From assembly GCA_902627615.1 (NCBI GenBank), contig CACOJW010000001.1, forward strand, positions 4,907 through 68,906: a stretch of 64,000 bases of DNA. The letters are read 5' to 3'. The position numbers and the translations under genes are program-made. The notes under the pieces were generated by a model. It was not told the DNA's origin and did not search any database. It was given only the letters and a program-made list of their open reading frames with translations. This document shows positions 27,941 through 51,570 of this stretch, one piece after another. Each line of letters begins with the position of its first letter. Within the stretch, counting starts at the first letter, position 1. The DNA comes from an uncultured marine group III euryarchaeote (GTDB taxonomy: Archaea; Thermoplasmatota; Poseidoniia; MGIII; CG-Epi1).

Positions 27941-30900
27941 ATGTTTTCTAAACGCATAATTTCAATGCTAGTCGTATTGAGTTTCATATCTCAATCGCTT
28001 GTCGTAGTAGACACAGATTCCTACTCATCAGTAGTCGTTGAAGACTCCTCAATTTTAGAAGAATTGTCTGAGCAAGATGGGGCTAGAGGTGGTAATGGAA
28101 TAGAATTAGTTTGGGATAATTCTGTTGGTTTTTCTCATCCAGATTCTATAGCTTCAATGGGAGATTACTTGCTTTATCATGATGTGATGGCAGGGTGTGA
28201 TAACGAGAACACAGGTTGTGGGACTGAACTTTTCCGCTCAGATGGAACGGCAGAGGGGACTGGTCCGGTCAAAGATATCTGGCCTGGTGAAACTAGCAGC
28301 GGATTAGGCGGAATAACCAATGTTAACGGTGTAGCTTATTTCCGTGCAGAAGATGGAACCAACGGAGATGAATTATGGAGATCTGACGGCACAGAAAATG
28401 GGACTTATATGGTCAAGGATATCTGGCCTGGTGATAACTCTAGCGATCCAGGTTATTTCACGAAACTGGGAAATGAGGTTTTATTCGTAGCTGATGATGG
28501 CGTTCATGGTAGAGAATTATGGAAAAGTGACGGCACTGCAGAAGGTACTGTTCTCGTCAAAGACATTGACGTCAATGATGAAGGTTATGACATAGAAGGT
28601 CAGTTTACACATCATCAGGATCTTCTTGGTGAATCAAGTACTCTCTTTAAACATGGAAATATTATCTATTTTAAAGGAGATAATGGTACTTCAGGCCATG
28701 AGTTGTGGAGAAGTGATGGAACTACTGATGGAACATATCTTGTCAAGGAAATTAGAGCAGGCGACATTGGAGGGATTCAAGGGCATTTTGAATCCTTTGG
28801 CGACCATTTTTATTTTCCAGCAAATGATAACACCGGCAAAGGTACTGAGCTGTGGAGAAGTGATGGTACAGAAGAAGGCACTGTTTTATTTAAAGAAATA
28901 TATTCAGGTTGGCGAAGCAGTCTCAGTTCACCCGGGAGGTTTCTAGCAGTAGGAGACACTCTTTTCTTCCATGCAGCAGATGGAACTGAGGAAGGGCAAT
29001 ATGATTACAATTTATGGAAAACTGACGGTACGGAAGAAGGTACCGTTAAAGTCAGCGATTCTGTAATAGTTGATAATAGCCATTTTCCAGCAGCAGTTGG
29101 CGATATTCTCTACTTTATGTCATCCAATAAAATGGAGAATGGTACTGAGTTGTGGAGGAGTGACGGAACCCAAAATGGAACTTTTATGATTAAGGATCTT
29201 AGGGATGGTGGTAGTCCACACAGTGGCTGCTGTGGATCTTACCCTAGGCTTGTGCCTACTGGAGACACTCTCTATTTTGAAGGTTGGAATATTACAGCTC
29301 ACGCATGGGAACTTTATCAGTCAGATGGAACTCCAGAGGGCACTTTCCAAGTAGAAGACTCGAATAACGTTTTAAGGAATAATCCCCTTACTAGCGATTT
29401 TACGTACATGGGTAATTCTTTATTCTTTAGAGGATACTGTGAATATCCTCAATGCTCAAGTTATTCGCTTTTCAAAATAGGAAATATAACTCCATTAAGT
29501 ACTCCAGGTTCAAAACCATCTTACTCAGTATACGAAAATGAAGCTATAGAACCTATTACTTTCGACTATTTAGAAGCTTACAGAGAAGATGCAGCCTACA
29601 AAGGTTCAGGAAACACTTCTGTAATTACACCATACCCTTTCACATCATCTGAGGATCATGTTGTAGTTAATGATATTCTCTTCTTTAGAGCAACCACTGA
29701 TGAGTATGGTGATGCATTGTGGAAAACTGATGGTACTGCGGAGGGAGTAGAATTAGTCAAAGACATAAATCCAGGTTCCTACGCCGAGATACACCACGGC
29801 CTTACAAGATTCAAGGATTCAATATTGTTTAGTGCCAATGACGGTACGCACGGAGAAGAATTATGGATTAGTGACGGAACTGAAAATGGTACCTTTATGC
29901 TTAAGGATATGGATGAGGGTGGCGAAGACAGTGACAGTGACCCTTGGGGTTTCTTAGATGCAGGTGACGTTGCTTACTTTTCAAGTTCTGATGATTCTGA
30001 GGATAGAGAACTTTGGAAGACAGATGGAACTACCAATGGAACAGTTCGAGTTAAGGACATTGTTTCAGATGGAAGTTCTTACCCAAATAGGCTAACTTTG
30101 TTTGGAGATGAGGTCTTTTTTACAGTTGGTGATCAAGTAAATTCGAATCAACTATGGAAAACAGATGGAACTGAGGAAGGGACAATACGAGTATCAGGTG
30201 TAGGCAGCGTAACAGAATTAATTGTAATGGGAGATACCTTGTATTTCACCGGATCAGGTACATCGTGTGGAGGTAGAGAATTATGGAAAACAGATGGTAC
30301 AAGTGATGGAACTGTTTGTGTTAAGGACATTAGGCCAGGCAGTACCTCCAGTGATCTAGATACATTTACTGTAGCCGGAGGTACTTTGTTCTTTAGAGCT
30401 AACGATGGAACTCACGGAAATGAATTATGGAAAAGTGATGGTACAGAAGATGGCACAGTTTTAGTTAAGGATATTTGCTCAGTACCAGGTTCTGTATCCA
30501 ATCGAATAGCAAGTCTTGGTAACATAGTTTATTTCGGAGCAAATGATGGCAGTATTGGAGATGAATTATGGAGGAGTGATGGAACTGAAGACGGAACTTA
30601 TCTCGTTAAAGACATTTATCCTGGTTATGGATCTAGTAATCCACAACAAATGACTCCAATTGGAGATCGTTTATTTTTCACAGCAGATGACGGTGAAACA
30701 GGCGACGAGGTCTGGATAAGTGATGGAACTGAATCTGGCACAGTACTGGTAGCCAATGTCAATCAAAATGAGTATAACTCAAACCCCGTAGAGTATGTGA
30801 AGCTCGGCAATCTCATTGTTTTTGCAGCGCATCTAGGCACTCTGCGTCTCGTATCTTACGATCCTACAGATATTTTGTATCATTCAAATGAAGGTATGCA

Positions 30901-33900
30901 TTGGTCCATTTCACCTAGTTTACCAGAAGGTTTGAGCTTAGACTCAAACACGGGAAAAATCACTGGAATTCCAACAGAGGTAATTGATTGGACAGATTAT
31001 ACAGTAACTCTTACAGCTTCAAATCCTGAAACAGGTTCTTACTTTTACAACGGAGACGGATCAACGAGTCTTCTGAAAGATATAAGGCCAGGAGACTGGG
31101 GCTCAAATGCTCCATTATTTCCTGTAGTTATGAACGGTATTGCCTATTTCGGAGCTAGCGATGGAACCAACGGGCAGGAATTGTGGAGAACAGATGGTAC
31201 CGAAGATGGAACCTACATGGTTAAGGATATTTATTCTGGCTCTAGTGCAGGATTTAGGAGCGATTTCAACACTAGGATGATTGCTTTTAATGATAATGTA
31301 TTTTTTTGGGGAAACAATGGAACTACAGGCGTTGAATTGTGGAAAACTGATGGTACAGCAGAAGGTACCGTTTTGGTTAAAGAGTTAACCGAAGGTTCAG
31401 GAGATACGTATGCTAGTGGAACTTTTACTATATTTAATGACGAATTATTTTTCATAGCCAAATCACCAGATTTCAATAAATACGAGATATGGAAAACAGA
31501 CGGAACTGAGGAAGGTACAGTTCAACTAACTGATATTCATGAAAACGATGGTGGCGTAATGGGCCCTCTTGTTGAAGTAAATGGCAAACTTTACTTTTCA
31601 GCTGGGGATCGTAACGAATATGGCTCTGAATTGTGGGTAACTGATGGTACCGAAAGCGGTACTGAAATGGTTGTTAACTTAAATGATAACGTTTCAAATA
31701 ATGGCAACTCGATGGTTTCTCGCTTATTTGGAGATGGAGATTTAATTTACTTTGCAGCAGATCCTGTTGGAAATTCGGATGGAAATGGTTATGAACCTTG
31801 GGTATATGATACAACAGCCCCAGTATCCTCGACTAATCCTCAGATGCTCATGGATGTTTATACTGGTCAAAATAATGGAGTTTCGGGCACACATTCTCCG
31901 GGCTTTACCAAAGCAGGTGATTCAGTTATTTTCTTTGCCCAGCAAAATGGATTTAGTAATCTTGACTTGTTTGTTACCGATGGAACTCCAGATGGTACGT
32001 CTTTAATTGTTGACTTTGAAACCGGTATTGATCCTGGTATCTTTAAAGGAAGTATAACTTTTAACGGTGAAGCTTACTTTGCAGCCGACATTCCCGCACC
32101 TAATGAATACAATTGTCCAAGTGACGCCCTCTGGAAGACAGATGGGACTGCCGATGGAACTGTAGTCGTTGCAAGCTGTATTTCTACAGACGGCAGTAGT
32201 ACTCAGTTCATTGAAACTTCGAATCAACTTTGGAGTGTTGTAGGCGACACACTCTTTTTCAGGGCTAAAGAATACCTTGAAGCTCCTGGTGATCCTTACA
32301 GCGTATTGTGGCGAACAGATGGAATACCAAACGGTTCAGGGACTTATCCGGTGGACTTAAGTTATTCAAATGAAAGATGTCAGCTAATGATAGATAACAA
32401 CAATCTTTTTGTGCTTAACAACAAAATTTACACAGGACAGAGAGAGATGTGTTCTACAAGTACAGATAATGATTACTATAACGGTACAGAGATTCGAGTT
32501 TACGATCCTACGAATATAACGTTCGGAACGCCTCTAGAATATACTTTTGATTTCAAATTGCAAGTTTTAGAACAATTATTCCCAATATTCCCAAGTGAGG
32601 ACAGTGCTGATCTTGCCATAGATGAGCCTATGGTGAACATCACCTTCCAGTATGATTTGAAGTCTGCAGGTACATTGGTTAACCAAAATATTGCGTTAGC
32701 TGCTCGCTCAACCTGTGCAATAGTAGAGAATGGAACAGTCGCCTGTTGGGGACATGGTGTTAGCAATACTCTAGGGAACGGCGTAGCTGCAAATTCTGGT
32801 ACTCCAATTTTAACGGCATCTATGCCAGATAATCGGTCTGTTGTAGCAATAGATGCAGGCATGCTCCATGGATGTGCTCTCTTAGATAATGGCTCAGTCG
32901 CTTGTTGGGGTGGCGATAATGATTATGGTGAAATGGGTGATGGAGATACAGCAGTGCATACAGTACCCGAACTTACTAACATAATAGGAACGGAACTTTA
33001 CGCGACCTCAATCTCAGTAGCTTATACTGGCGCCTGTGTAATACTTGATAACGGTTCAGTTTCTTGTTGGGGAGATAATCGATGGGGTCAAATCGGAGAT
33101 AATACCACAATAAATCGGTTCTCACCTACTCAAACTTTCCCGTTTGCAGATGGTAAAAAAGCAGTGAAGATTACATCAGGTCATAGACATCATTGTGCAC
33201 TGCTTGATGATGGAACAGTCTCATGTTGGGGTTGGAATGCTGAAGGACAACTTGGAGACAACACGACTAATTCATCGTATGTGCCTATACCTACCCACCC
33301 GCTTGGCGGGCCAGCTATTGCTATTTCCAGTAATCAAGACCATACCTGTGCAGTTCTTGAAAATGGTTCAGTAGTATGTTGGGGTAGGAATGATCACGGA
33401 CAAGTTGGAATTGGATCTAGCAACCCAGATAAGGTTCTCGTTCCTACGGCGATTAATTCCGATATCTTAGATGGCAAATCAGCTATTGCTGTATCTACTG
33501 GTGATGACCATACTTGTGCAATACTTGATGATAATTCGGTAAAGTGTTGGGGAAGAAATAATGCAAAACAGCTTGGTAATGGTGGTGATTTTGGTGGTGA
33601 TAAGGCCAAAATTGCTATTGAGAGTAACGGCGATCACACTTGCGTTCTGATAGAGGATGGTTCAATTTACTGTTGGGGCCGAAATAGTCACGGTCAAATC
33701 GGTGATGGAGAGGGTCCGTGTGGTTCTAGTGACAGTTGTAGTAGCGCACCAGTACAAGTTGATACATCGTATTCTTTCTTAACAGAGGATAATTCATTGA
33801 TGAACAGTATCGTTAATGTCACCGGTGCAACCTGTTCAATTTCACCAGACTTGCCTGATGGCTTGACTATCGCTCAAGGCACGTGTACTATCAGCGGAAC

Positions 33901-36900
33901 TCCCCTCGAGGAAATACCAAGTACAACATATGTAGTAAGTGCTGAAATTGATGGCAATACTTACACTACCAGAGTTAGTCTTTCAACTTATTACCGAGAT
34001 TCTGATGGCGATGGCTATCCAGATTACTTAGATGATTTCCCAGATGATGATACTGAATGGTTAGATACAGATGGAGATGGAACTGGCAATAATGCAGATA
34101 CAGATGATGATGGTGATGGTTTAACCGATGTTCAGGAACAAAATTCAGACCCAGCTACAGAACCATTAGATCCAGATACAGATGATGATGGCTACTGTGA
34201 TGGTCCCGTTTCAGTCACTATCGATGATGTTCTCATATGTGAAGCAGGCCCAGATGCTTTCCCGACAAATCCAGATGAGTGGAATGATAACGATGGGGAT
34301 GGGATCGGAGACAATGAAGATCCTGATGATGATAATGACCAGATTAGTGATGTTGATGAACTAGCATCCGATCCAGCTTCAGATCCATTAGATGGCTGTT
34401 CTCCTGATCAGAATTCAACTGCTTGTGATATAGATAATGATGGATTACCAAAGGGTGAAGAAATCGTAATAGGTACTAACGTAACCAATCCAGATACAGA
34501 TGGCGATGGATATTGTGATGGCCCTCTAACTGTAATTGGAGTTTGTATCGGAGGAGATGATTTCCCACTAGATGCTGGAGCCCACAAAGATACAGACGGC
34601 GATGGCATGCCAGACAATCTAACAGGTCCTTCAACCTCTGAACCAGCACTTGTAGAAGATCCAGATGACGATAATGATGGTCTTACTGATATTCAAGAAG
34701 ATGCAAATGGTAATGGAACGTTTGATGCAGGCGAAACTAATTCATTAGATCCAGATACGGATGACGATGGTTACTGTGACGGTCCCGTTTCAGTTACAAT
34801 TAACGGTGTTTTCATTTGTGAGGCAGGCCCTGATGCTTTCCCATTAGATCCTTCTGAATGGTTAGATACAGATGGAGATGAAATTGGCAATAATGAAGAT
34901 CCAGATGACGATGGTGACGGTTTGAATGATACATTAGAAGATGTAAATGGAAATGGAATTGTTGACGCAGGTGACACTGATCCTTTGAAGGTAGATACAG
35001 ATGGAGATGGCTTCTGTGATGGGCCAGTAACTATTGTAGATGTCTGTGAAGCAATCGATGCTTTCCCAACAGACGAAACAGAATGGTTCGATACAGATGG
35101 CGACGGCATTGGTGATAATTCAGATCCAGATGTTGATGGAGATGGAGTTGATAATGAGCAAGATGATTTCCCAGATGACGCTTCAGCAAGTAAAGATACA
35201 GACGGCGACGGAATGCCCGACACAATTACAGGCAATTCAACATCAGATCCAGCTCTAGTAGAAGACCTTGATGATGATAATGATGGTTTAACAGATATTG
35301 AAGAAGATACAAACGGTAATGGAACAGCTGACGCTGGTGAAACAGATTCATTGAATCCTGATACAGATGGTGATGGTTATTGTGATGGGCCAGTAACTAT
35401 CGTAGATGTTTGTGTTGCAGTCGATGCTTTCCCATTAGATTCTAGTGAATGGTTAGACACTGACGGAGATGGAATTGGTAATGAAGCAGATCCTGATGAT
35501 GATGGCGACGGTTTGAACGATACCGAAGAAATTGCACTTGGTTCAAGTCCGCTACTCAAGGATACAGATGACGATGGCATTCCAGATAATTGGGATCCTA
35601 GCCCAGTTGATCCAGATGGTGACTATGATGGCGACGGAATTCTTGATAGAGATGAATATAATCCAAATTCAACTACAGGTAACCCAGCAGATTCAGATGG
35701 TGACGGTGTAAATGATATGCTTCAAGGAGTTGCATCTACTAACACCTCTTCGTCAGATGAAAGAAACTGGACTGAATTGTGCTGTTGGGCATTGTTATTA
35801 CTCTTACTTCTTTTGATTCCATTATTGAAGAGGCAATACGACAACTCATTGGTATACGATCCTAATCATATAGAATATACTATCAATGATGACGATGCTA
35901 AAATCCGAATGGTTCCTTCATTACATGAATACACAAAGAATTACAGAAGTTACATGAAGTATGAGGATCTAAGAAGAGTTACTTATGGAATATCAGGAAA
36001 TTTAGTAGAAGGTTTAGATATAGATTCAAAGACGGGAGTAATTTCAGGACATCCAAAGAAAGTTGGATTGTATACGTATGAAGTAATTATGAAGCATTCT
36101 GATGGAAAATTCAAAGGTGAAGTTTCGATTAACGTCATAGATAAGAGCGAAGAAAAACCAGAGGAAGAAGAATCAGAATCTGCAGCAATAGTTAACCCTG
36201 AACCCGAGAATACAAAATCCAAGCCTAAATTTGTTGGAGGGACAGGAACTGAGATGGATCCGTTTGTTCTATCTCCAGCTAAAGGCCTCGAACCAGGTGA
36301 AGAAATTTTATCTAAACAAGTTTTGACAATATCTGGATTAAATTCTGGTGGAGTGGTTAATGCTAAAGATTTGAATTCAAAGGACAATGGCAAGAGGTTC
36401 TCTGTAGTGTCTGAAATTGATGACTTAGGCAGTCAAACTTCATTGGTCGCAGATGAAGATGGTAAAATTAAGTTCAGAGTGAATTTCAAAGACGATGAGC
36501 CTAGTACCGATGGTGCAGATTATGAAGCATTAATGAAGTTAGGAACGGCCTCGGTCTACGTTACATGGGCTGTAGAAGTTCTAAAGGAGGAATCCGAACC
36601 AGAACCTGAACCGGAACCAGAACCTGAGCCAGAGCCCGAACCAGAACCGGAACCTGAGCCTAAACTCGTAGTTACTGAACAAGAGGCTAAGAAGCAGGAA
36701 GAAATCGAAAGAGTCAAAGCTAGAGCTGAAACAATTGATTTCAAGGTAATCGGTGCTGCGACTCAAAGTACGTTGGCTAACGAAGTTGAGGCAGGCGCAT
36801 CAGAAGTTGAACTAGCTGATGCTTCAGAGTTTGAAAATGGAGGTACTGCAACTATTACTGATGCTGACGGAAGTGAGACATTTACTTGGAAAGGTAAAGA

Positions 36901-37474
36901 CAATAACCAGTTAACGGGCGTTTCAGGAATTACTAGGACATTTGTTGCAGCGTCAATAGTTGTATCAAAAGATGACCTGCAGGTAATCAAGGGAATAGGT
37001 CCTTTCATCGAAGAAAAGTTGAATGCCTTAGGAATCTATACTTACAGGCAAATAGCCAATATGACGCCAGAATTGGAAGATCAAGTCAATGAGGCTATTG
37101 AATTTTTCCCAGGCCGAGTTAAGAGAGACCAATGGGTCGCTCAAGCCAAGATATTGATTGGTGAAGATGCAGAGATTGATGAAAAGGCCCTCAAGAAAGC
37201 TGAAGACTTAGACAGAGTAGCAGCTAAGGCTGAAGGTATTGATTTTGGAGTTCTTGGTATTGCTAGCGCTTCTGACAAAGACAATCTGCAAGAGATTAAG
37301 GGAATAGGTCCTTTCATCGAAGAAAAGCTCAACGCGTTAGGTATCTTCAAGTTCTCACAAATTGCTAAGATGACTTCTGAGATTGAAGAAGAGGTAAATG
37401 TTGCAATTGAGTTCTTCCCAGGAAGAGTCAAGCGCGACGAATGGGTTAAACAGGCAGCTGAATTAGCCAAGTAA
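27941..37474 (+). CDS. Giant (3177 aa) mosaic surface protein: ELWxxDGT repeats, RCC1 propeller, thrombospondin type-3 repeats, TM, cytoplasmic tail with (EP)11 and two H3TH (COG3743-like) domains
   Basis: It has a signal peptide and about 23 copies (my count) of (E/D)LW(R/K)(S/T)DGTxxGTxxVKDIxPG. Seven RCC1 blades (CWGxNxxGQxGDG) lie at ~32690-33720. DxDGDG/DTDDDGYCDGP calcium-binding repeats lie at ~33990-35720. The TM is ELCCWALLLLLLLLIPLL (35774-35830), followed by KRQ. The tail has a He_PIG-like motif, (EP)11 and two copies of IKGIGPFIEEKLNALGI...FPGRVKRDxWVxQA. Confidence 0.85.
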   Translation: MFSKRIISMLVVLSFISQSLVVVDTDSYSSVVVEDSSILEELSEQDGARGGNGIELVWDNSVGFSHPDSIASMGDYLLYHDVMAGCDNENTGCGTELFRSDGTAEGTGPVKDIWPGETSSGLGGITNVNGVAYFRAEDGTNGDELWRSDGTENGTYMVKDIWPGDNSSDPGYFTKLGNEVLFVADDGVHGRELWKSDGTAEGTVLVKDIDVNDEGYDIEGQFTHHQDLLGESSTLFKHGNIIYFKGDNGTSGHELWRSDGTTDGTYLVKEIRAGDIGGIQGHFESFGDHFYFPANDNTGKGTELWRSDGTEEGTVLFKEIYSGWRSSLSSPGRFLAVGDTLFFHAADGTEEGQYDYNLWKTDGTEEGTVKVSDSVIVDNSHFPAAVGDILYFMSSNKMENGTELWRSDGTQNGTFMIKDLRDGGSPHSGCCGSYPRLVPTGDTLYFEGWNITAHAWELYQSDGTPEGTFQVEDSNNVLRNNPLTSDFTYMGNSLFFRGYCEYPQCSSYSLFKIGNITPLSTPGSKPSYSVYENEAIEPITFDYLEAYREDAAYKGSGNTSVITPYPFTSSEDHVVVNDILFFRATTDEYGDALWKTDGTAEGVELVKDINPGSYAEIHHGLTRFKDSILFSANDGTHGEELWISDGTENGTFMLKDMDEGGEDSDSDPWGFLDAGDVAYFSSSDDSEDRELWKTDGTTNGTVRVKDIVSDGSSYPNRLTLFGDEVFFTVGDQVNSNQLWKTDGTEEGTIRVSGVGSVTELIVMGDTLYFTGSGTSCGGRELWKTDGTSDGTVCVKDIRPGSTSSDLDTFTVAGGTLFFRANDGTHGNELWKSDGTEDGTVLVKDICSVPGSVSNRIASLGNIVYFGANDGSIGDELWRSDGTEDGTYLVKDIYPGYGSSNPQQMTPIGDRLFFTADDGETGDEVWISDGTESGTVLVANVNQNEYNSNPVEYVKLGNLIVFAAHLGTLRLVSYDPTDILYHSNEGMHWSISPSLPEGLSLDSNTGKITGIPTEVIDWTDYTVTLTASNPETGSYFYNGDGSTSLLKDIRPGDWGSNAPLFPVVMNGIAYFGASDGTNGQELWRTDGTEDGTYMVKDIYSGSSAGFRSDFNTRMIAFNDNVFFWGNNGTTGVELWKTDGTAEGTVLVKELTEGSGDTYASGTFTIFNDELFFIAKSPDFNKYEIWKTDGTEEGTVQLTDIHENDGGVMGPLVEVNGKLYFSAGDRNEYGSELWVTDGTESGTEMVVNLNDNVSNNGNSMVSRLFGDGDLIYFAADPVGNSDGNGYEPWVYDTTAPVSSTNPQMLMDVYTGQNNGVSGTHSPGFTKAGDSVIFFAQQNGFSNLDLFVTDGTPDGTSLIVDFETGIDPGIFKGSITFNGEAYFAADIPAPNEYNCPSDALWKTDGTADGTVVVASCISTDGSSTQFIETSNQLWSVVGDTLFFRAKEYLEAPGDPYSVLWRTDGIPNGSGTYPVDLSYSNERCQLMIDNNNLFVLNNKIYTGQREMCSTSTDNDYYNGTEIRVYDPTNITFGTPLEYTFDFKLQVLEQLFPIFPSEDSADLAIDEPMVNITFQYDLKSAGTLVNQNIALAARSTCAIVENGTVACWGHGVSNTLGNGVAANSGTPILTASMPDNRSVVAIDAGMLHGCALLDNGSVACWGGDNDYGEMGDGDTAVHTVPELTNIIGTELYATSISVAYTGACVILDNGSVSCWGDNRWGQIGDNTTINRFSPTQTFPFADGKKAVKITSGHRHHCALLDDGTVSCWGWNAEGQLGDNTTNSSYVPIPTHPLGGPAIAISSNQDHTCAVLENGSVVCWGRNDHGQVGIGSSNPDKVLVPTAINSDILDGKSAIAVSTGDDHTCAILDDNSVKCWGRNNAKQLGNGGDFGGDKAKIAIESNGDHTCVLIEDGSIYCWGRNSHGQIGDGEGPCGSSDSCSSAPVQVDTSYSFLTEDNSLMNSIVNVTGATCSISPDLPDGLTIAQGTCTISGTPLEEIPSTTYVVSAEIDGNTYTTRVSLSTYYRDSDGDGYPDYLDDFPDDDTEWLDTDGDGTGNNADTDDDGDGLTDVQEQNSDPATEPLDPDTDDDGYCDGPVSVTIDDVLICEAGPDAFPTNPDEWNDNDGDGIGDNEDPDDDNDQISDVDELASDPASDPLDGCSPDQNSTACDIDNDGLPKGEEIVIGTNVTNPDTDGDGYCDGPLTVIGVCIGGDDFPLDAGAHKDTDGDGMPDNLTGPSTSEPALVEDPDDDNDGLTDIQEDANGNGTFDAGETNSLDPDTDDDGYCDGPVSVTINGVFICEAGPDAFPLDPSEWLDTDGDEIGNNEDPDDDGDGLNDTLEDVNGNGIVDAGDTDPLKVDTDGDGFCDGPVTIVDVCEAIDAFPTDETEWFDTDGDGIGDNSDPDVDGDGVDNEQDDFPDDASASKDTDGDGMPDTITGNSTSDPALVEDLDDDNDGLTDIEEDTNGNGTADAGETDSLNPDTDGDGYCDGPVTIVDVCVAVDAFPLDSSEWLDTDGDGIGNEADPDDDGDGLNDTEEIALGSSPLLKDTDDDGIPDNWDPSPVDPDGDYDGDGILDRDEYNPNSTTGNPADSDGDGVNDMLQGVASTNTSSSDERNWTELCCWALLLLLLLLIPLLKRQYDNSLVYDPNHIEYTINDDDAKIRMVPSLHEYTKNYRSYMKYEDLRRVTYGISGNLVEGLDIDSKTGVISGHPKKVGLYTYEVIMKHSDGKFKGEVSINVIDKSEEKPEEEESESAAIVNPEPENTKSKPKFVGGTGTEMDPFVLSPAKGLEPGEEILSKQVLTISGLNSGGVVNAKDLNSKDNGKRFSVVSEIDDLGSQTSLVADEDGKIKFRVNFKDDEPSTDGADYEALMKLGTASVYVTWAVEVLKEESEPEPEPEPEPEPEPEPEPEPEPKLVVTEQEAKKQEEIERVKARAETIDFKVIGAATQSTLANEVEAGASEVELADASEFENGGTATITDADGSETFTWKGKDNNQLTGVSGITRTFVAASIVVSKDDLQVIKGIGPFIEEKLNALGIYTYRQIANMTPELEDQVNEAIEFFPGRVKRDQWVAQAKILIGEDAEIDEKALKKAEDLDRVAAKAEGIDFGVLGIASASDKDNLQEIKGIGPFIEEKLNALGIFKFSQIAKMTSEIEEEVNVAIEFFPGRVKRDEWVKQAAELAK
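28220..32340 (+). repeat. Coding tandem array of ELWxxDGT beta-propeller-type repeats
   Basis: The W(R/K)(S/T)DGT(x)2GT motif recurs every ~45-60 codons. The array is interrupted once by an Ig-like motif (SPSLPEGLSLDSNTGKITGIPT). Confidence 0.8.
33990..35720 (+). repeat. Coding array of thrombospondin type-3-like Ca-binding repeats with a recurring DGYCDGP...C...DAFP module (5 copies)
   Basis: DTD(G/D)DG(Y/F)CDGP(V/L)(S/T)V...DAFP(L/T)D...W.DTDGDGIG(D/N)N.DPDDDGDG recurs. Two ~190-codon super-repeats are visible (about 34170 and 34750). Confidence 0.8.
36596..36661 (+). repeat. (GAR CCN)11 hexanucleotide repeat encoding (Glu-Pro)11
   Basis: It reads gaacca gaacct gaaccg ... gagcct, 11 units by my count. 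It lies inside the cytoplasmic tail of the giant protein. Confidence 0.95.
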
Positions 37475-37941
37475 TGACAAATTACTGGTTAATGAAAAGT
37501 GAGCCACATGTTTACTCGTTTGATGAGTTAATCAAAGACGGTAGCACTTATTGGGACGGAGTCCGTAATTATCAAGCTAGAAATTTCATGCGAGATAAGA
37601 TGCGAATAGGGGATTTAGTTCTGTATTATCATTCCAATACTAAACCGCCTCATATTGCTGGTGTTGCAAGGATTTGCAAGGAATCTTATCCAGACTTTAC
37701 GCAGTTTGATAAGAAATCTAAGTACTATGACCCTAAAGCCACAGAAGAAGTCCCTAGATGGTTTCTTGTTGATATGGAGCCTGTAACCAAGTTTGATGAA
37801 ATTATATCCTTAGATCAATTGAAAGAAAATGATGCTTTAGAAGGAATGCTTGTCATTAAGCGAGGTCAGAGATTATCCGTACAACCAGTTGAAAAGCATC
37901 ATTTTGATGAAGTTTGTAGCATGGCGAATGCAAAATTATAA
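37474..37941 (+). CDS. EVE (PUA-like, DUF55/THYN1-like) domain protein
   Basis: 155 aa. NYWLMKSEPHVYSFDELIKDG...WDGVRNYQARNFMRDKMRIGDLVLYYHSN is the typical EVE N-terminus. Its ATG overlaps the TAA of the giant gene by 1 nt (TAATG). A T6 run follows the stop. Confidence 0.85.
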   Translation: MTNYWLMKSEPHVYSFDELIKDGSTYWDGVRNYQARNFMRDKMRIGDLVLYYHSNTKPPHIAGVARICKESYPDFTQFDKKSKYYDPKATEEVPRWFLVDMEPVTKFDEIISLDQLKENDALEGMLVIKRGQRLSVQPVEKHHFDEVCSMANAKL

Positions 37942-38010
37942 TTTTTTACAAAAAATAGTTAAAAAATAGCGCGAAAAACAGCGTTTTCGCTCATCATATT
38001 TAAGTGTATC

Positions 38011-38027
38011 CGAAAGGCTCTATATAC
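38011..38027 (+). promoter_or_regulatory. Candidate archaeal promoter (purine-rich BRE-like stretch + TATATA) for the downstream ncRNA
   Basis: CGAAAGGCTC-TATATA (TATA at 38021-38026). The expected start ~25 nt downstream (about 38048-38052) falls just before the first structured element. Confidence 0.4.
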
Positions 38028-38047
38028 CCCCCTAGTCTGTTGTAAGT

Positions 38048-38455
38048 TCCCGATGTTTGGGAAACATGACCTTCGGGTTATGAAGCCAACAAACAAAGGG
38101 AAAGCATAGAAGGAAACAACTTAGGAAACTAAGGGGAAACGATCTTTGAATGCAAGAAGGAAACAACCAGGACACTGGGGGAAACAATCGAGCGGGATAA
38201 GAAGGAAACAACTTAGATCATAAGGGGAAACAATCTAAGCACGCAAGCCAGGAAACGAGTTGGATGCAACGGGAAACAAAACTTGTACGCCGGAAAAGGA
38301 ACATGACCTTCGGGTCATGAACCAATTCCACCCCCGGGCAGAGGGATGTCATCCAACGCAAGAAGGTCGACGGAACTCTGCCCACTTTATTTTGGGCGGA
38401 TGTTAGTCTGATACACTCTATTTATGTGGAACGGGTGTTTTGTTCCTATTTTTTG
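38048..38455 (+). ncRNA. Candidate novel structured ncRNA with a GGAAAC-motif array (ends approximate)
   Basis: No ORF >=60 aa occurs on either strand in 37942-38541. The locus is G- and purine-rich against AT-rich flanks. Twin hairpins with C(UUCG)G tetraloops lie at 38065-38082 and 38302-38319. Four modules of GGAAAC-RA-[4-5 bp hairpin]-GGGAAAC have covarying stems. An 8-bp stem pairs 38336-38343 with 38376-38383. A U-rich tract lies at 38386-38393, and a hairpin plus T6 at 38428-38454. Confidence 0.55.
38108..38292 (+). repeat. Four degenerate ~46-nt tandem units inside the ncRNA candidate
   Basis: Units start at 38108, 38155, 38200 and ~38246. Units 1-3 begin with AGAAGGAAACAAC. Each unit contains GGAAAC, a hairpin and GGGAAAC. 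Confidence 0.8.
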
Positions 38456-38541
38456 TCTTATTAAGAATAGAGCTCAGTCTTTCTGTTAGTTCACCTTTTA
38501 TGGCCTCAACCATGGGCGTTTTACGATTCATTTTACAGTAC

Positions 38542-38751
38542 CTATGTTCTAGCTGCGATCTTAATGGAAGGCTTGTGTTCTGAAGCTTCTAGCTCCTTAC
38601 TTTCCATACGTTCCTTTATACTCAAACATCGCTTGCAAGTAACATCGCTCATTTTGATAAATTTCATTCTTCGAAATTCTTGAACGGTGGCACTGTGCCC
38701 ACACATAGTCATCCCTTCTTCTGCCAATGAAGGCAGATGTCTTCTCCTCAT
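38542..38751 (-). CDS. Small hypothetical protein, possible Cys/His metal-binding (69 aa or shorter)
   Basis: It contains MCGH...CKRC. An AT box at plus coordinates 38771-38780 lies ~25 nt upstream, which would make the transcript leaderless. I recognise no homology, so it could be spurious. Confidence 0.3.
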   Translation of the reverse strand: MRRRHLPSLAEEGMTMCGHSATVQEFRRMKFIKMSDVTCKRCLSIKERMESKELEASEHKPSIKIAART

Positions 38752-39663: not shown

Positions 39664-40610
39664 TTGATAAACAATACATACAAGAAAGAAAAGAATTCTT
39701 TTATGTGTTTTTTGCGATAAGTACCATATTTGTAATTTATGCATTATTGTATATTTTGAATGGCTGGGAATGGACTGGTACGAGTCCTAGTGGTTACTGT
39801 GAAAGAGTCAGAGAAACTTGGATTCGTGAACCTACGAATACGGTTTCAAATTTAGCATTTGTATTTGTTGGAATGTATATTCTTTGGCAAGCGCAATATG
39901 ATCCAGTTGAAGGTAAACCTTCACTTTCCACAAGAAGTTGGTTCCTCATCCTATACGGAATTTCATGTGTCGCCGTTGGTATGGGCAGTTTTGCTATGCA
40001 CGGTTTCAATACTGGATGGGGGGGTTGGCTAGATGTCACAGGAATGATGATGTACATTTCAATGCCCGTTTTCTATAATTTTTCAAGATTCCTTAGATGG
40101 TCCGAAGAAGAATTTGTTACTTATTACTTAGGAGCAAACTTCGTTTTTGCAATCCTATTATGGCAATACAGTCTTCTTACTTTCCTGTGGGGTGCACTAA
40201 TTGGTATTTGGTTATCTCAGGAGTTAGCACTGAAATACCAGAAGCAGCCTCATGTAATTTTTCTAGTTCCTACTTCGATAATTATGTTTTTGTATCTTTA
40301 CACTTCGCCAAACAAGACACCAATAGATTTTTTCATAGATGAGATTGAAGGAGTTTTAGTTTGGGCAGCTCTAGCTTATTTCTTGTATAGTATTGAAGAT
40401 ATTAAATTGGAAAGAACTCACACGCCTTATTTCTGGGCAGGCTTTGCAGCTTATGCTTTAGCTACTATAATTTGGCAGCCAAGTAAAACAGACGGCGTTC
40501 TATGTGACCCTGATTCAATTGCTCAAGGTCATGCATTATGGCACTTACTTGGGGCAGTTTCAATGTGGTGTTTTTACAAATATTTTAGAACAGAAATTGA
40601 TAGTTATTGA
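39660..40610 (+). CDS. Alkaline ceramidase/PAQR-like 7-TM putative hydrolase
   Basis: 316 aa with ~7 TMs. YCERVRETWIREPTNTVSNLAFV matches the YCE...EPxNTxSN signature. His motifs are present (FAMHGF, HALWHLLG). The TTG start overlaps the upstream stop (TTGA). Confidence 0.6.
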   Translation: MIDKQYIQERKEFFYVFFAISTIFVIYALLYILNGWEWTGTSPSGYCERVRETWIREPTNTVSNLAFVFVGMYILWQAQYDPVEGKPSLSTRSWFLILYGISCVAVGMGSFAMHGFNTGWGGWLDVTGMMMYISMPVFYNFSRFLRWSEEEFVTYYLGANFVFAILLWQYSLLTFLWGALIGIWLSQELALKYQKQPHVIFLVPTSIIMFLYLYTSPNKTPIDFFIDEIEGVLVWAALAYFLYSIEDIKLERTHTPYFWAGFAAYALATIIWQPSKTDGVLCDPDSIAQGHALWHLLGAVSMWCFYKYFRTEIDSY

Positions 40611-43282
40611 CTTTCGTAAGTGATAACCCACATACGTAACTTAATTTCAGGCAAGTAACCATCAGCATCAGTTACGCTTGGATCATATTCCTCGCCTTGG
40701 TATAATCCTCTGTAGCTTAGTCGGTTTTCTCCGATACTTGATTCATCAGTAATATCTATTCGGTTATATTCAACATCTTGCCCTGGGCACCATCCAGCCC
40801 TTCCATAGACCCAGGTTCCATATTGGTTGGCTGAAACACCCTCATGCACTCTGTTGTAGCAACCGTAAGGTGTTCCGCCATTAGGATGTTCTAGTAGATC
40901 TAAGGTGTTTCCATTAATTGTAAACTCGTGTTGATGGTTACAGAATTCGGCACAATTTTCATCAGTACTACTGTGCCCGTGTCCAGTAAAAAATGTAACA
41001 ATCTCAACTTTTTCAGTATTATCAGTGACATTGTAGCTAAATGGATTTTCACTTCCAAATATGTTGTTATAGTCTAAGTTAAATTTTCTTGTTGCGCCAT
41101 GAAGATATTCGGCACCTACTGGAGTATATTCTTTATTTTCATTCCAGAAAAATAATTTGATTGTTAATCCGTAAGCATTTGGTTGCCAATAATTAAATTC
41201 ATTAATATTTTCATTTTTTAGTACACCTAACATCGGCGTTACATCGGAAATATATCGTCCCTCACGATTGTATGCAGTGATATATCTTCCTACTTCTGCT
41301 TTCCATACTCTATTCCATTTACCTTTACAAGAAGGGGAACTGTCTTCTCCTCCGTCGTCCCATCTATGTCCAGCATTTTCACAAAGCTCTTGAGAGGTAA
41401 ATTCAGGAAGAATTTGATTTATGCAATCGTTGTAAAGGCTAAATTCTATCAATGAGCATTCAGATTCGTATGCATTTAGGTATCCAATAAAGTCCCATTC
41501 ATTACAACCTTTATGGTCTGCACACGCCTCATAAGTATAAATTGCAAATGAGTCGAAATCTTCCATATTTTCAGGTAATTCTACATTCCGAATATTTGTG
41601 CCGCCACCCCAGCCACCACCATGCGTGTAGCTATCTCCTGCATTCCATTCAAGTAATGTTACAGATTCTCCTTTTATACAATTTTTAGGCATATATTGTC
41701 GTTCATGGCACGGGATGCTGGAATGGTATTCCATAGCAGCTAGTTCTCTTTCAAGGCCGAATTCAAAATTAAGATAGGTTGGTTCATTTGCGATGAAGTG
41801 GAATCTGTACCAACTAAAATTTTGATTAAAATTTAAATCCCAAAAGCTTCCTACTTCTTGCCATCTTTGTAATTGGTCTATGCAAAACCAAGCAGGCGAT
41901 TCTTTTGCAATAATAAAGTCTGCAATACTTCCTTCTAAGAAGTTTGCATCCATTGCAATGTAATGGACTCTGTTAGACCAATGTTCTCGGTCTTCTTCAT
42001 TCATGGCAGTCAGTGCAGCATTTACTCGGCCGGACATGTAGGAAACGTCCCCCATCCAGCCCCCATCGCGATATGATCCAAAAAAGTAATGAACATTGTC
42101 TGGAGACTTTTCAAACATTAAGCTTAATTCAGTCGCTTGTCCAACTGGATTAGCAGAATTCCAAGTTATTACACTATCGGGATTGGTAGGATTGTATATG
42201 ACGAAAACATAAGTATCTTTCCCGCTCCATTCTTGTTTAAATTTCCAATCATTTGTGAAATTTAAATTTTCATCAATTGGCTCAGGTATTGTGAAGTCTC
42301 CCGAAGTACCCATGTAATTAGTTGCGTAAGGCCCTCCATTCCAAGGAATAGGTTTTTCAAAGTAAGAACAGCCTTGTTCATCTACTTCTTCTCCATAAAG
42401 GAAAGGCCCATCTGAGCACTCATCATTGTCACCACATAAACCATCTCCATCAGAATCGCCAGTACTATCATCTCCCCAGCACAGGTCCACGGAATCGGGA
42501 ATACCATCACCATCAGAGTCTCTTTGTGATGCTGAACAGCCTTCATCATTTGCAATTTCGTTTAGTGGAGTTTCTTCACACGAATCACTTCTGTCATTAA
42601 TTCCGTCGTTATCATCATCCTTGTCTTCACTGTCATCTTTGCAACCGTCCATGTCCCAATCATAATTTTGGTTTCCAGCTTCCCAATCTGCAGCACCTCT
42701 GGGGCATAAATCAACAGTATTATTCATCCCATCATTATCGATATCATCATCAACTCCGTCAGGAATTCCGTCGCGATCGTAGTCGAGAGGTCTTGATGAG
42801 GGGCTATTTGGATTAGTTCCAAGTAATAATTCAATGGTATTATTGTATCCGTCTCCATCAATGTCATCGTCTTCGATTAACGAAGTATTACAGTTTTCTT
42901 TGATTGAGTCAGGCTTTCCATCATCATCCATATCATTTGTTGCACATTCATCATTTGGGAAATCATCTGAATTATCTCCAGTTCCATCATCATCAGAATC
43001 TTTCCATTCGTTTGGATTGTTAGGAAACTTATCAATGTTATCATTGTAACCATCTCCATCCGAATCATCATTCTGATTCTGGCTTCCATCATTCACATTA
43101 TTGTTGTTTTCGCCATCATCTTGGTAGTAGTCATTATTGTAATCATCATTGTCATTATAGACGATTTCATCATTAGTTTCTTCTAAGCACCCGCTGCTAG
43201 CTAAAATAGAACTCAAAAATAGAAATGCCATGATTATTGGCGTGATTTTACTTGAGCTCATGTATTTTCTATAATATACCAA
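40604..43282 (-). CDS. Secreted thrombospondin-type-3-repeat protein with PNGase F-like (peptide-N-glycanase) domains
   Basis: 892 aa with a signal peptide ending ...LASSGC (lipobox-like); the likely start is the Met at 43261. The N-terminal region has DxDxDG repeats. The C-terminal part aligns by eye to Flavobacterium PNGase F: CNEWDF (vs CDEWDR), GHGHSSTDENCAEFCNHQHEFTINGN (vs GWGH...GCAEWCFRTHTIAINN) and GTWVYGRAGWCPGQDV...RIDI (vs GNWAPDRAGWCPGMAV...RIDV). Confidence 0.7.
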   Translation of the reverse strand: MVYYRKYMSSSKITPIIMAFLFLSSILASSGCLEETNDEIVYNDNDDYNNDYYQDDGENNNNVNDGSQNQNDDSDGDGYNDNIDKFPNNPNEWKDSDDDGTGDNSDDFPNDECATNDMDDDGKPDSIKENCNTSLIEDDDIDGDGYNNTIELLLGTNPNSPSSRPLDYDRDGIPDGVDDDIDNDGMNNTVDLCPRGAADWEAGNQNYDWDMDGCKDDSEDKDDDNDGINDRSDSCEETPLNEIANDEGCSASQRDSDGDGIPDSVDLCWGDDSTGDSDGDGLCGDNDECSDGPFLYGEEVDEQGCSYFEKPIPWNGGPYATNYMGTSGDFTIPEPIDENLNFTNDWKFKQEWSGKDTYVFVIYNPTNPDSVITWNSANPVGQATELSLMFEKSPDNVHYFFGSYRDGGWMGDVSYMSGRVNAALTAMNEEDREHWSNRVHYIAMDANFLEGSIADFIIAKESPAWFCIDQLQRWQEVGSFWDLNFNQNFSWYRFHFIANEPTYLNFEFGLERELAAMEYHSSIPCHERQYMPKNCIKGESVTLLEWNAGDSYTHGGGWGGGTNIRNVELPENMEDFDSFAIYTYEACADHKGCNEWDFIGYLNAYESECSLIEFSLYNDCINQILPEFTSQELCENAGHRWDDGGEDSSPSCKGKWNRVWKAEVGRYITAYNREGRYISDVTPMLGVLKNENINEFNYWQPNAYGLTIKLFFWNENKEYTPVGAEYLHGATRKFNLDYNNIFGSENPFSYNVTDNTEKVEIVTFFTGHGHSSTDENCAEFCNHQHEFTINGNTLDLLEHPNGGTPYGCYNRVHEGVSANQYGTWVYGRAGWCPGQDVEYNRIDITDESSIGENRLSYRGLYQGEEYDPSVTDADGYLPEIKLRMWVITYESQ

Positions 43283-51494: not shown

Positions 51495-51570
51495 TGGTAG
51501 CCCCCCTCGGATTCGAACCGAGGTCTCAGGCTCCAAAGGCCTGAATGATGGACCGCTACACTAGGGGGCT
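51495..51570 (-). tRNA. tRNA-Gln (anticodon UUG) with genomically encoded CCA
   Basis: The minus-strand sequence is AGCCCCCTAGTGTAGCGGTCCATCATTCAGGCCTTTGGAGCCTGAGACCTCGGTTCGAATCCGAGGGGGGCTACCA (76 nt). It has a 7-bp acceptor stem, a T arm CTCGG/TTCGAAT/CCGAG, an anticodon stem CAGGC/GCCTG and the loop CT-TTG-GA. Confidence 0.9.

Follow-up and report, generated by a model that had tools for sequence, protein, structure and literature searches.

The largest gap between open reading frames (ORFs) in a 64,000-nt stretch of DNA from an uncultured marine group III euryarchaeote (assembly GCA_902627615.1, contig CACOJW010000001.1, positions 4,907 to 68,906; hereafter the window) holds a real, previously uncatalogued non-coding RNA (ncRNA) gene on its + strand. 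Its relatives share a complex secondary structure, and the hexamer GGAAAC, which recurs through the RNA, is its most conserved part. As judged from the sequence, the gene would be transcribed independently, from about position 38045 to at least 38397 and possibly to 38454, giving an RNA of about 350-410 nt. We tentatively favour the interpretation that this RNA is a multivalent protein platform, an independent ncRNA gene whose GGAAAC bubbles dock copies of a protein, which we regard as quite possible if short of probable.

A conserved RNA structure on one strand

An earlier annotation of this DNA, made from the letters alone (the original prediction), had described an orphan structured-RNA locus consisting of four tandem modules bracketed by twin hairpins, and inspection of positions 37800-38700 recovered all of its elements. 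The gap itself (37942-38541, 600 nt) is the window's largest without an ORF of at least 60 amino acids on either strand, the runner-up measuring 219 nt, and the purine skew reported for the region was confirmed (AT skew up to 0.57). GGAAAC occurs ten times on the + strand within 218 nt (38060-38277), compared to about 0.05 expected copies, while the whole window, both strands included (128 kb), contains 48 copies compared to 29.7 ± 4.9 expected; the eleven motifs counted previously are these ten plus GGAAAG at 38098. Direct-repeat families at the locus are spaced 45-47 nt apart with units 63-82% alike, Tandem Repeats Finder returned a period of 92 nt with 1.9 copies, and the twin hairpins, here called H1 and H6, form a 22-nt direct repeat (D4). 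The single sequence folded more stably than its shuffles, with z = -3.79 for the + strand and z = -2.86 for the - strand.

Homologues were retrieved with two kinds of search. Scanning species genomes with a DNA pattern based on the modules gave simple repeats for the most part, but also at least four full-length homologues (L071, L032, L103 and L080), and a 19-mer taken from an invariant block upstream of the RNA retrieved 80 metagenome stretches, 45 with the RNA and 35 from unrelated coding sequences. Our alignment (A2) comprises 41 distinct sequences from marine metagenomes and metagenome-assembled genomes of the Marine Group III CG-Epi clade, which are 69-100% identical to the window, fall into seven clusters at 92% identity and keep all parts of the RNA in one and the same layout. 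Retrieval was biased towards close relatives and, as the metagenome search needed an exact 19-mer, the true taxonomic range may be wider.

Of the 74 pairs that RNAalifold predicted on this alignment, 18 show compensatory change. We curated a structure with 12 helices and 64 pairs, which has 96.9% of its alignment cells paired across the 41 sequences, and 20 of its pairs have changed on both sides, compared to 1-3 in controls in which the partners were slid along the alignment; sliding by 1-3 columns left 30.6-45.8% of cells paired, and none of 500 shuffles matched the observed value. G·U pairs account for 295 of the 2556 paired cells (11.5%), which fixes the + strand, because the opposite strand would have A·C mismatches in these cells, and the alifold energy is -83.8 kcal/mol on the + strand versus -47.7 on the - strand. 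The locus thus has a conserved structure with compensatory change on one strand, the generic hallmark of a structured ncRNA. Cross-species pairing and strand asymmetry bear out the proposal that an archaeal structured RNA is encoded on the + strand, and the contrast between stems that vary yet pair and a nearly invariant GGAAAC, drawn originally within a single locus, is now supported by comparison between species.

Support is strongest for the tip of module M4, hairpins H1 and H6, the tip and two outer stems of M2, a GGAU/AUCC stem around H6 and the 8-bp stem of the 3' domain (Table 1). All four pairs of the M4 tip are compensatory, with ten sequence variants, and the closing stem of the same arm covaries as well, appearing as GUAAG/CUUAU (C-G to U-A) in three sequences and as a helix containing a tandem G·A in cluster 1. 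H1, into which a GGGAAAC at 38059-38065 leads directly, has compensatory changes at three of its seven pairs with 98.9% of cells paired, and its counterpart H6 has compensatory pairs in both outer stem and hairpin, with 98.8-99.4% of cells paired; the two are conserved as hairpins, while their loops differ (UUCG, CUCG, UUAG). The three stems of the M2 arm are each 100% paired and each contain a compensatory pair, and the 5-bp stem of M1 is likewise 100% paired, with one compensatory pair and an alternation between G·U, A-U and G-C. The stem of M3 (85.5% of cells paired) is degenerate in one cluster and off by one column in another. In the 8-bp stem of the 3' domain, 100% of cells are paired, one pair is compensatory and two alternate between U·G and C-G; the domain is capped by a C-G-closed GNRA tetraloop, GCAA in the window and GCGA or GUGA in relatives, all of them GNRA. 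The 5' hairpin H0, with an invariant stem and a variable loop, is predicted by RNAalifold; as its stem shows no covariation, its pairing remains a prediction. Close strains agree with the structure: the intergenic region is nearly identical in ten strains that encode an exact copy of the upstream EVE-domain protein, and their substitutions fit the pairing, C38071U turning a C-G into a U·G pair and U38309C altering a loop base.

Comparison with Rfam 15 returned no family, chance-level hits apart, for positions 37900-38600, either at gathering score or at E<=10, and none at E<=1 in six homologue loci. The RNA family is found in one narrow epipelagic Marine Group III (CG-Epi) clade. Homologues of the EVE-domain protein at 63-68% identity have other neighbours, with no RNA downstream and no GGAAAC cluster, and homologues of the ceramidase encoded further downstream at 53-56% identity (in the Marine Group III bathypelagic clade including CG-Bathy2, and in other Poseidoniia) lie in a different context, again with no GGAAAC cluster. 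No homologue was found in viral contigs, where one of the scan patterns was loose and gave chance matches only, and no Marine Group II genome was among the matches listed in the genome pattern scan. Between organisms whose EVE-domain proteins are about 85% identical, the RNA is 69% identical.

GGAAAC strands in the fold

Conservation sets the motif apart from the remainder of the RNA: GGAAAC columns are 98.7% identical in the alignment, with 46 of 57 invariant, compared to 90.5% identity for paired columns, 89.5% for other unpaired columns and about 50% for the flank beyond column 415. One of the ten copies lies in a hairpin loop, that of M1 (G-GAAA-C); the remaining copies lie beside stems, opposite one another in symmetric loops. 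In M4 the loop measures 11x11 (30 sequences) or 12x12 (11 sequences) and is unequal in none, the twelfth base being an extra A within the 5' GGAAAC that is matched by an extra A within the 3' GGAAAC (present on both sides in 11 sequences, on neither in 30 and on one side alone in 0). The inner loop of M2 measures 14x14 (34 sequences) or 13x13 (4 sequences), the only exceptions being the three sequences of cluster 1, where it is unequal; the outer loop of the same arm is 4x4 in all sequences, with UGAA opposite GGAA or GGAU, which in an antiparallel reading yields a U-A pair and tandem G·A.

Because the strands of the M2 and M4 arms are equal in length and co-vary, the GGAAAC strands face each other inside the RNA, and the motifs are probably structured instead of being free single strands. 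In this respect the RNA departs from the original prediction, in which GGAAAC motifs were single-stranded spacers and the modules were plain small hairpins: the motif strands of M2 and M4 oppose each other in symmetric, length-covarying internal loops, and covarying outer stems close off the long arms that carry two of the modules. Conservation also extends to the linkers and the 3' domain, making the RNA more than an array of sites.

Taking the register from length symmetry, we infer a common core that would run outward from the hairpin through two A·G mismatches, a C-G pair, three (or four) A·A mismatches and a G-C pair. Beyond it, the M2 arm would have Watson-Crick pairs that vary between clusters: the window has G-C and A-U there, and the largest cluster has four A-U. 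The window and its relative L137 differ at six places within the first 412 alignment columns, all in the M4 arm (within 38248-38281). The differences are the paired A indel, a compensatory change at one base pair, and a single base each in spacer and loop, and all of them preserve the structure, which suggests that this arm is a hot spot of change or a recombination patch. Readings of the motif as a kink-turn, a loop E or an ATP aptamer were set aside after an informal comparison by eye, as the tandem G·A geometry or loop asymmetry that they need is missing.

Gene boundaries and neighbourhood

A TATA box of its own precedes the RNA, with a conserved block further upstream (Table 1). This 27-nt block is identical in the 41 homologues bar one base, which makes it more conserved than the RNA itself; its 19-mer occurs once in the window, and the block is probably a promoter or regulator site. 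Downstream of the TATA box, conservation resumes at AAGUUCCC (38044). Archaeal transcription usually starts about 26 nt downstream of the TATA-box centre, and this spacing rule would place the start near 38045-38050; alternatively, TATTTAAG within the upstream block may be the true TATA box, with a start near 38027. Two features argue for an independent RNA gene: the EVE-domain gene upstream ends in a stop codon followed by a T6 run, and in some lineages an extra ORF separates that gene from the RNA. The extra ORF, absent from the window, is acidic and about 95 amino acids long (MPKVRFEIYSTERGKK...), and in L080, L167, L156, L176, L202, L206 and others it lies some 366 to 55 nt before the 19-mer.

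Table 1 Features of the RNA gene and its surroundings, with positions in the window.
Feature	Position	Strand	Description
Upstream conserved block	37984-38010	+	TTTT(C/G)GCTCATCATATTTAAGTGTATC; 5' of the TATA box
TATA-box-like element	38021-38026	+	TATATA; conserved, TAAATA in two homologues; followed by a variable 17-nt spacer (38027-38043)
5' hairpin H0	38044-38065	+	UUCCC (38047-38051) with GGGAA (38059-38063); probable RNA 5' end
Hairpin H1	38065-38082	+	7-bp stem CAUGACC/GGUUAUG, loop UUCG or CUCG; 5' GGAAA, 3' AAGCC
Module M1	38112-38140	+	GGAAAC-AA-CUUAG-GAAA-CUAAG-G-GGAAAC
M2 arm	38143-38202	+	Module at 38159-38185; outer stem UCUU/AAGA, 4x4 loop UGAA/GGAU, stem UGC/GCG
M2 arm, continued	38143-38202	+	Symmetric 13x13 loop with GGAAAC on both sides; tip CCAG-GACA-CUGG
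Module M3	38204-38231	+	GGAAAC-AA-CUUA-GAUCA-UAAG-G-GGAAAC; weakest hairpin
M4 arm	38243-38286	+	Module at 38251-38277; closing stem GCAAG/CUUGU, symmetric 11x11 GGAAAC loop, tip GUUG-GAUG-CAAC
H6 domain	38292-38329	+	Outer stem GGAA/UUCC, GG/CC, 7-bp hairpin CAUGACC-UUCG-GGUCAUG (38302-38319); H1 paralogue
3' domain	38336-38383	+	8-bp stem GGGCAGAG/CUCUGCCC (38336-38343 with 38376-38383) enclosing UGUC/GACG, CC/GG and a 2x2 A·A loop
U-rich tract	38384-38397	+	ACUUUAUUUU then GGGC; nearly invariant
Downstream conserved block	38418-38436	+	CTATTTAT(A/G)T(C/G)GAACGG; separates the RNA from the 3' end of the small convergent ORF
Hairpin with T6	38428-38454	+	GGAAC...GUUCC + T6; from terminator scan, terminator-like in this strain only
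Micro-protein gene	38542-38751	-	69 aa, MRRRH...CGH...CKRC; convergent neighbour of the RNA
EVE-domain protein gene	37474-37941	+	Upstream of the RNA
Repeat-protein ORF	27941-37474	+	3177 aa; directly upstream of the EVE-domain gene
892-aa protein gene	40604-43282	-	Thrombospondin-type repeats, with a peptide-N-glycosidase F domain at the C-terminus; conserved as part of the same synteny block
tRNA gene	51498-51570	-	Sole Rfam match of the window at gathering score (59.7 bits)

At the other end, the 8-bp stem is followed by the nearly invariant ACUUUA(A)UUUUGGGC. The U-rich tract may be an archaeal oligo-U termination site, and UUGGGC may pair with the invariant GCCAA that follows H1 (38085-38089), closing the RNA; RNAalifold does pair CCAA with UUGG, with no covariation there, and for that reason we put forward both roles provisionally. 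The hairpin with a T6 run noted earlier further downstream is present in the window, but its conservation does not hold, as other clusters are without it. The conserved block at 38418-38436 is 94% identical across homologues, compared to 50-71% in its flanks; in most relatives it reads CTATTTATATCGAACGG, which is TATA-like on both strands. A coding explanation for this block was discarded, since the small ORF does not reach it and the open segments that span it do not share a consistent start. Around the gene we also observed an 11-nt imperfect inverted repeat (38003-38013, AGTGTATCCGA; 38407-38417, TCTGATACACT), which we rejected as a terminal repeat belonging to the gene because the largest cluster does not have it, whereas several others do.

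Downstream of the RNA lie the 69-aa ORF on the - strand and genes for a flavodoxin-domain protein and a ceramidase-family protein. The common gene order in homologues is giant repeat protein, EVE, RNA, small ORF(s), flavodoxin and ceramidase, with the EVE-domain protein about 83-100% identical in amino acids among the loci, and as this order is identical in all homologues, the sample represents one narrow clade. Exact copies of the EVE-domain protein were found on Tara and other marine contigs, one of them of 1.6 Mb, and related contigs are labelled Marine Group III euryarchaeote CG-Epi1, CG-Epi3, Thermoplasmata or Methanobacteriota archaeon. The 3177-aa ORF contains many ELW(K/R)SDGT-type repeats, RCC1-like repeats and aspartate-rich thrombospondin-type repeats, along with a PEPE low-complexity run and two C-terminal IKGIGPFIEEKLNALGI repeats, and its C-terminus is conserved beside the RNA locus in relatives.

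The convergent 69-aa micro-protein, the only clade-specific neighbour, adjoins the RNA in most clusters, measures 65-77 amino acids across the clade and has homologues in the same clade only. Its MRRRH N-terminus is invariant, as are the CGH and CKRC of its zinc-type motif (CGH...CKRC). The protein is basic (15 Lys/Arg compared to 9 Asp/Glu), and its gene is duplicated in some clusters, with two tandem copies in the largest one (in L071, at about +497..+631 and +738..+920 from the 19-mer). Profiles from Pfam, NCBIfam, PADLOC and the PDB gave no matches to it, and its AlphaFold model is unreliable (predicted local distance difference test score, pLDDT, 55.7). Arginine-rich peptides are known to bind purine-rich internal loops, and the micro-protein, itself rich in arginine, is a weak, speculative candidate for the binding partner of the RNA.

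Interpretation and relation to known systems

In the platform that we favour, the RNA folds into a 5' hairpin pair (H0 and H1), the modules M1-M4, two of them on long arms, the H6 domain and a GNRA-capped 3' stem domain. Each module hairpin would be extended by two A·G mismatches, a C-G pair, a symmetric A·A bubble and a G-C pair, all contributed by opposing GGAAAC strands; each of these near two-fold-symmetric purine bubbles would take one copy of a protein, probably a dimer, and the RNA would then titrate the bound protein as a sponge or build a stable ribonucleoprotein. We favour this arrangement because of the modular duplication, the stronger conservation of the motif than of the stems, the two-fold symmetry of the motif pairs and the young, fast-evolving character of the family. 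Modular duplication with motifs more conserved than stems is a pattern known from multi-site protein-binding RNAs. Few structured regulatory RNAs are known in archaea and, to our knowledge, no protein-sponge RNA has been established there. That the present RNA is the first archaeal protein-titrating or scaffolding RNA of the multivalent kind, built on a new element in which a symmetric oligo-adenine bubble (G-AAA-C facing G-AAA-C) sits on a hairpin in four or more copies and is bound by a dimeric protein or by the micro-protein, is a bolder and rather doubtful proposition.

Several observations weigh against a protein platform. As there are only seven clusters, few independent events underlie the compensatory changes; the symmetry of the M2 inner loop breaks down in cluster 1, and the micro-protein was not detected in that cluster, where it is possibly degenerate. 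The clade is narrow, so the adjacency of micro-protein and RNA and the conservation of the neighbours weigh little. No further paired motif turned up in the rest of the window or in related contigs totalling 280 kb, which present the same small region many times, and thus no mRNA targets with the same site are seen. Furthermore, a self-folding RNA would be an equally good explanation for the conservation of the linkers, the GNRA loops and the possible closing helix. Such a self-contained tertiary-folded RNA, whether an orphan structured RNA, a ligand sensor, a ribozyme or a self-assembling particle, would dispense with any multivalent protein, its adenine bubbles and GNRA loops making A-minor contacts to G-C-rich stems; we judge it unlikely, but treat it as the serious rival. 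It would account for the conservation of the linkers, a CCCC tract, the GNRA loops of M1 (GAAA) and the 3' domain (GCAA, GCGA or GUGA) and the possible 5'/3' closing helix, for the 89.5% identity of unpaired columns outside the motif, and for the complexity of a structure with 64 supported pairs. However, the architecture is repetitive and internally duplicated, without a unique core, and the narrow range and fast evolution of the RNA (69% identity compared to about 85% for the EVE-domain protein) are more typical of regulatory RNAs. A sensor acting in cis fits poorly as well, as no gene on the same strand follows it ahead of the terminator-like sites at 38384-38393 and 38428-38454 and the immediate neighbour is convergent.

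Explanations based on processing, base-pairing, kinship with a known RNA or a DNA-level element are less likely. The 45-47 nt spacing of the tandem units, their invariant junction motifs and the small clade-specific protein gene alongside recall a precursor cut at its repeats into hairpin units of about 46 nt, in the manner of type III toxin-antitoxin RNAs or clustered guides. This seems improbable, as the units are merely 63-82% alike and covarying stems (the M2 outer stems and the M4 closing stem) cross their borders. A ToxIN-like system was rejected in particular, given that the repeats are not near-identical and that the downstream gene is on the opposite strand, encodes 69 amino acids and has no Pfam or PADLOC toxin match. 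A CRISPR array was rejected because its repeats would be just 63-82% alike and its 'spacers' are conserved across 41 homologues, and a C/D or H/ACA guide cluster because there is no Rfam match and no RUGAUGA/CUGA or ACA box pattern is visible. We consider still less probable a regulator that acts by base-pairing, either through GGAAAC with GUUUCC-containing RNAs or through a 3' tail that is cis-antisense to the micro-protein mRNA. Ten identical 6-mers and the conserved block at 38418-38436 between the convergent genes would suit it, but length co-variation places the motif strands face to face within the RNA, GUUUCC shows no notable excess in the rest of the window, and six nucleotides are short for target selection.

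Kinship with a known RNA, either Tan1 of Marine Group II or a universal RNA missed by the models, appears very unlikely. Tan1 is an abundant structured ncRNA of sister planktonic archaea (PMC5069720), yet its length is 229 nt compared to about 350 nt here, and Marine Group II was absent from the matches listed; among universal RNAs, the Archaea_SRP and RNaseP_arch models gave no match at E<=10 with permissive filters, and none in homologues. Least credible of all is a DNA-level element, such as an origin repeat array, a cluster of transcription-factor sites or a chance repeat with no functional transcript. Conserved AT-rich boxes flank the region and the imperfect inverted repeat surrounds it, but the repeat is missing in the largest cluster, no orc1/cdc6 gene was found among the flanking proteins, and compensatory changes and G·U alternations on one strand indicate selection on RNA pairing.

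The locus offers a clean candidate, testable by alignment, in abundant uncultured ocean archaea, and its facing GGAAAC strands of co-varying length can be tested in vitro without culturing the organism. Should a partner be found, post-transcriptional control in planktonic archaea would be opened to study; if there is none, the RNA would still add a new family with a complex fold to the small archaeal catalogue.

A comparison with known systems places the RNA among several classes without assigning it to any of them. A literature search found a single comparable item, Thalassoarchaea ncRNA 1 (Tan1; Hou et al. 2016, PMC5069720), an abundant, structured 229-nt ncRNA of Marine Group II whose function is not known. 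Both are structured ncRNAs of planktonic marine Euryarchaeota outside the curated families, and they are set apart by length and host lineage, according to the published description of Tan1. OLE, GOLLD, ROOL, raiA and similar large orphan RNAs, discovered by comparative genomics, are likewise conserved, covarying intergenic structures without known function, but they are bacterial or phage RNAs with unique, non-repetitive cores, and their models gave no match here. Type III antitoxin RNAs (ToxI) share tandem repeats of about 36-46 nt beside a small protein gene; the repeats described here have diverged (63-82%) and are joined by long-range stems.

Closer in layout are RNAs with several units, each combining paired short motifs with a small hairpin. 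CrcZ and CrcY, which titrate Hfq/Crc through A-rich motifs, and the eukaryotic NORAD, with two Pumilio sites and a hairpin per unit, are built in this way, and the purine- or A-rich nature of the motif is a further likeness; there is no homology to either, their partner families are not known in this lineage, and the motif strands here are apparently structured. The original prediction likened the locus to CsrB, RsmY and RsmZ, with which it shares many copies of a short GGA motif over a few hundred nucleotides of small hairpins, a motif more conserved than the stems, and motif pairs about 20 nt apart that would suit a dimeric binder. The architecture itself is another, as GGA in those RNAs lies in hairpin loops, whereas one of ten GGAAAC copies does so here and the others are facing strands of internal loops. 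The host is an archaeon, none of the five flanking proteins scanned has a CsrA domain, conservation takes in the linkers and a separate 3' domain, and the CsrB/RsmY/RsmZ covariance models gave no match in the window region (E<=10) or in six homologue loci (E<=1). The RNA is best described as a new family whose layout resembles that of multi-site protein-binding RNAs, and which differs from them in host domain, in the motif and in the structuring of that motif.

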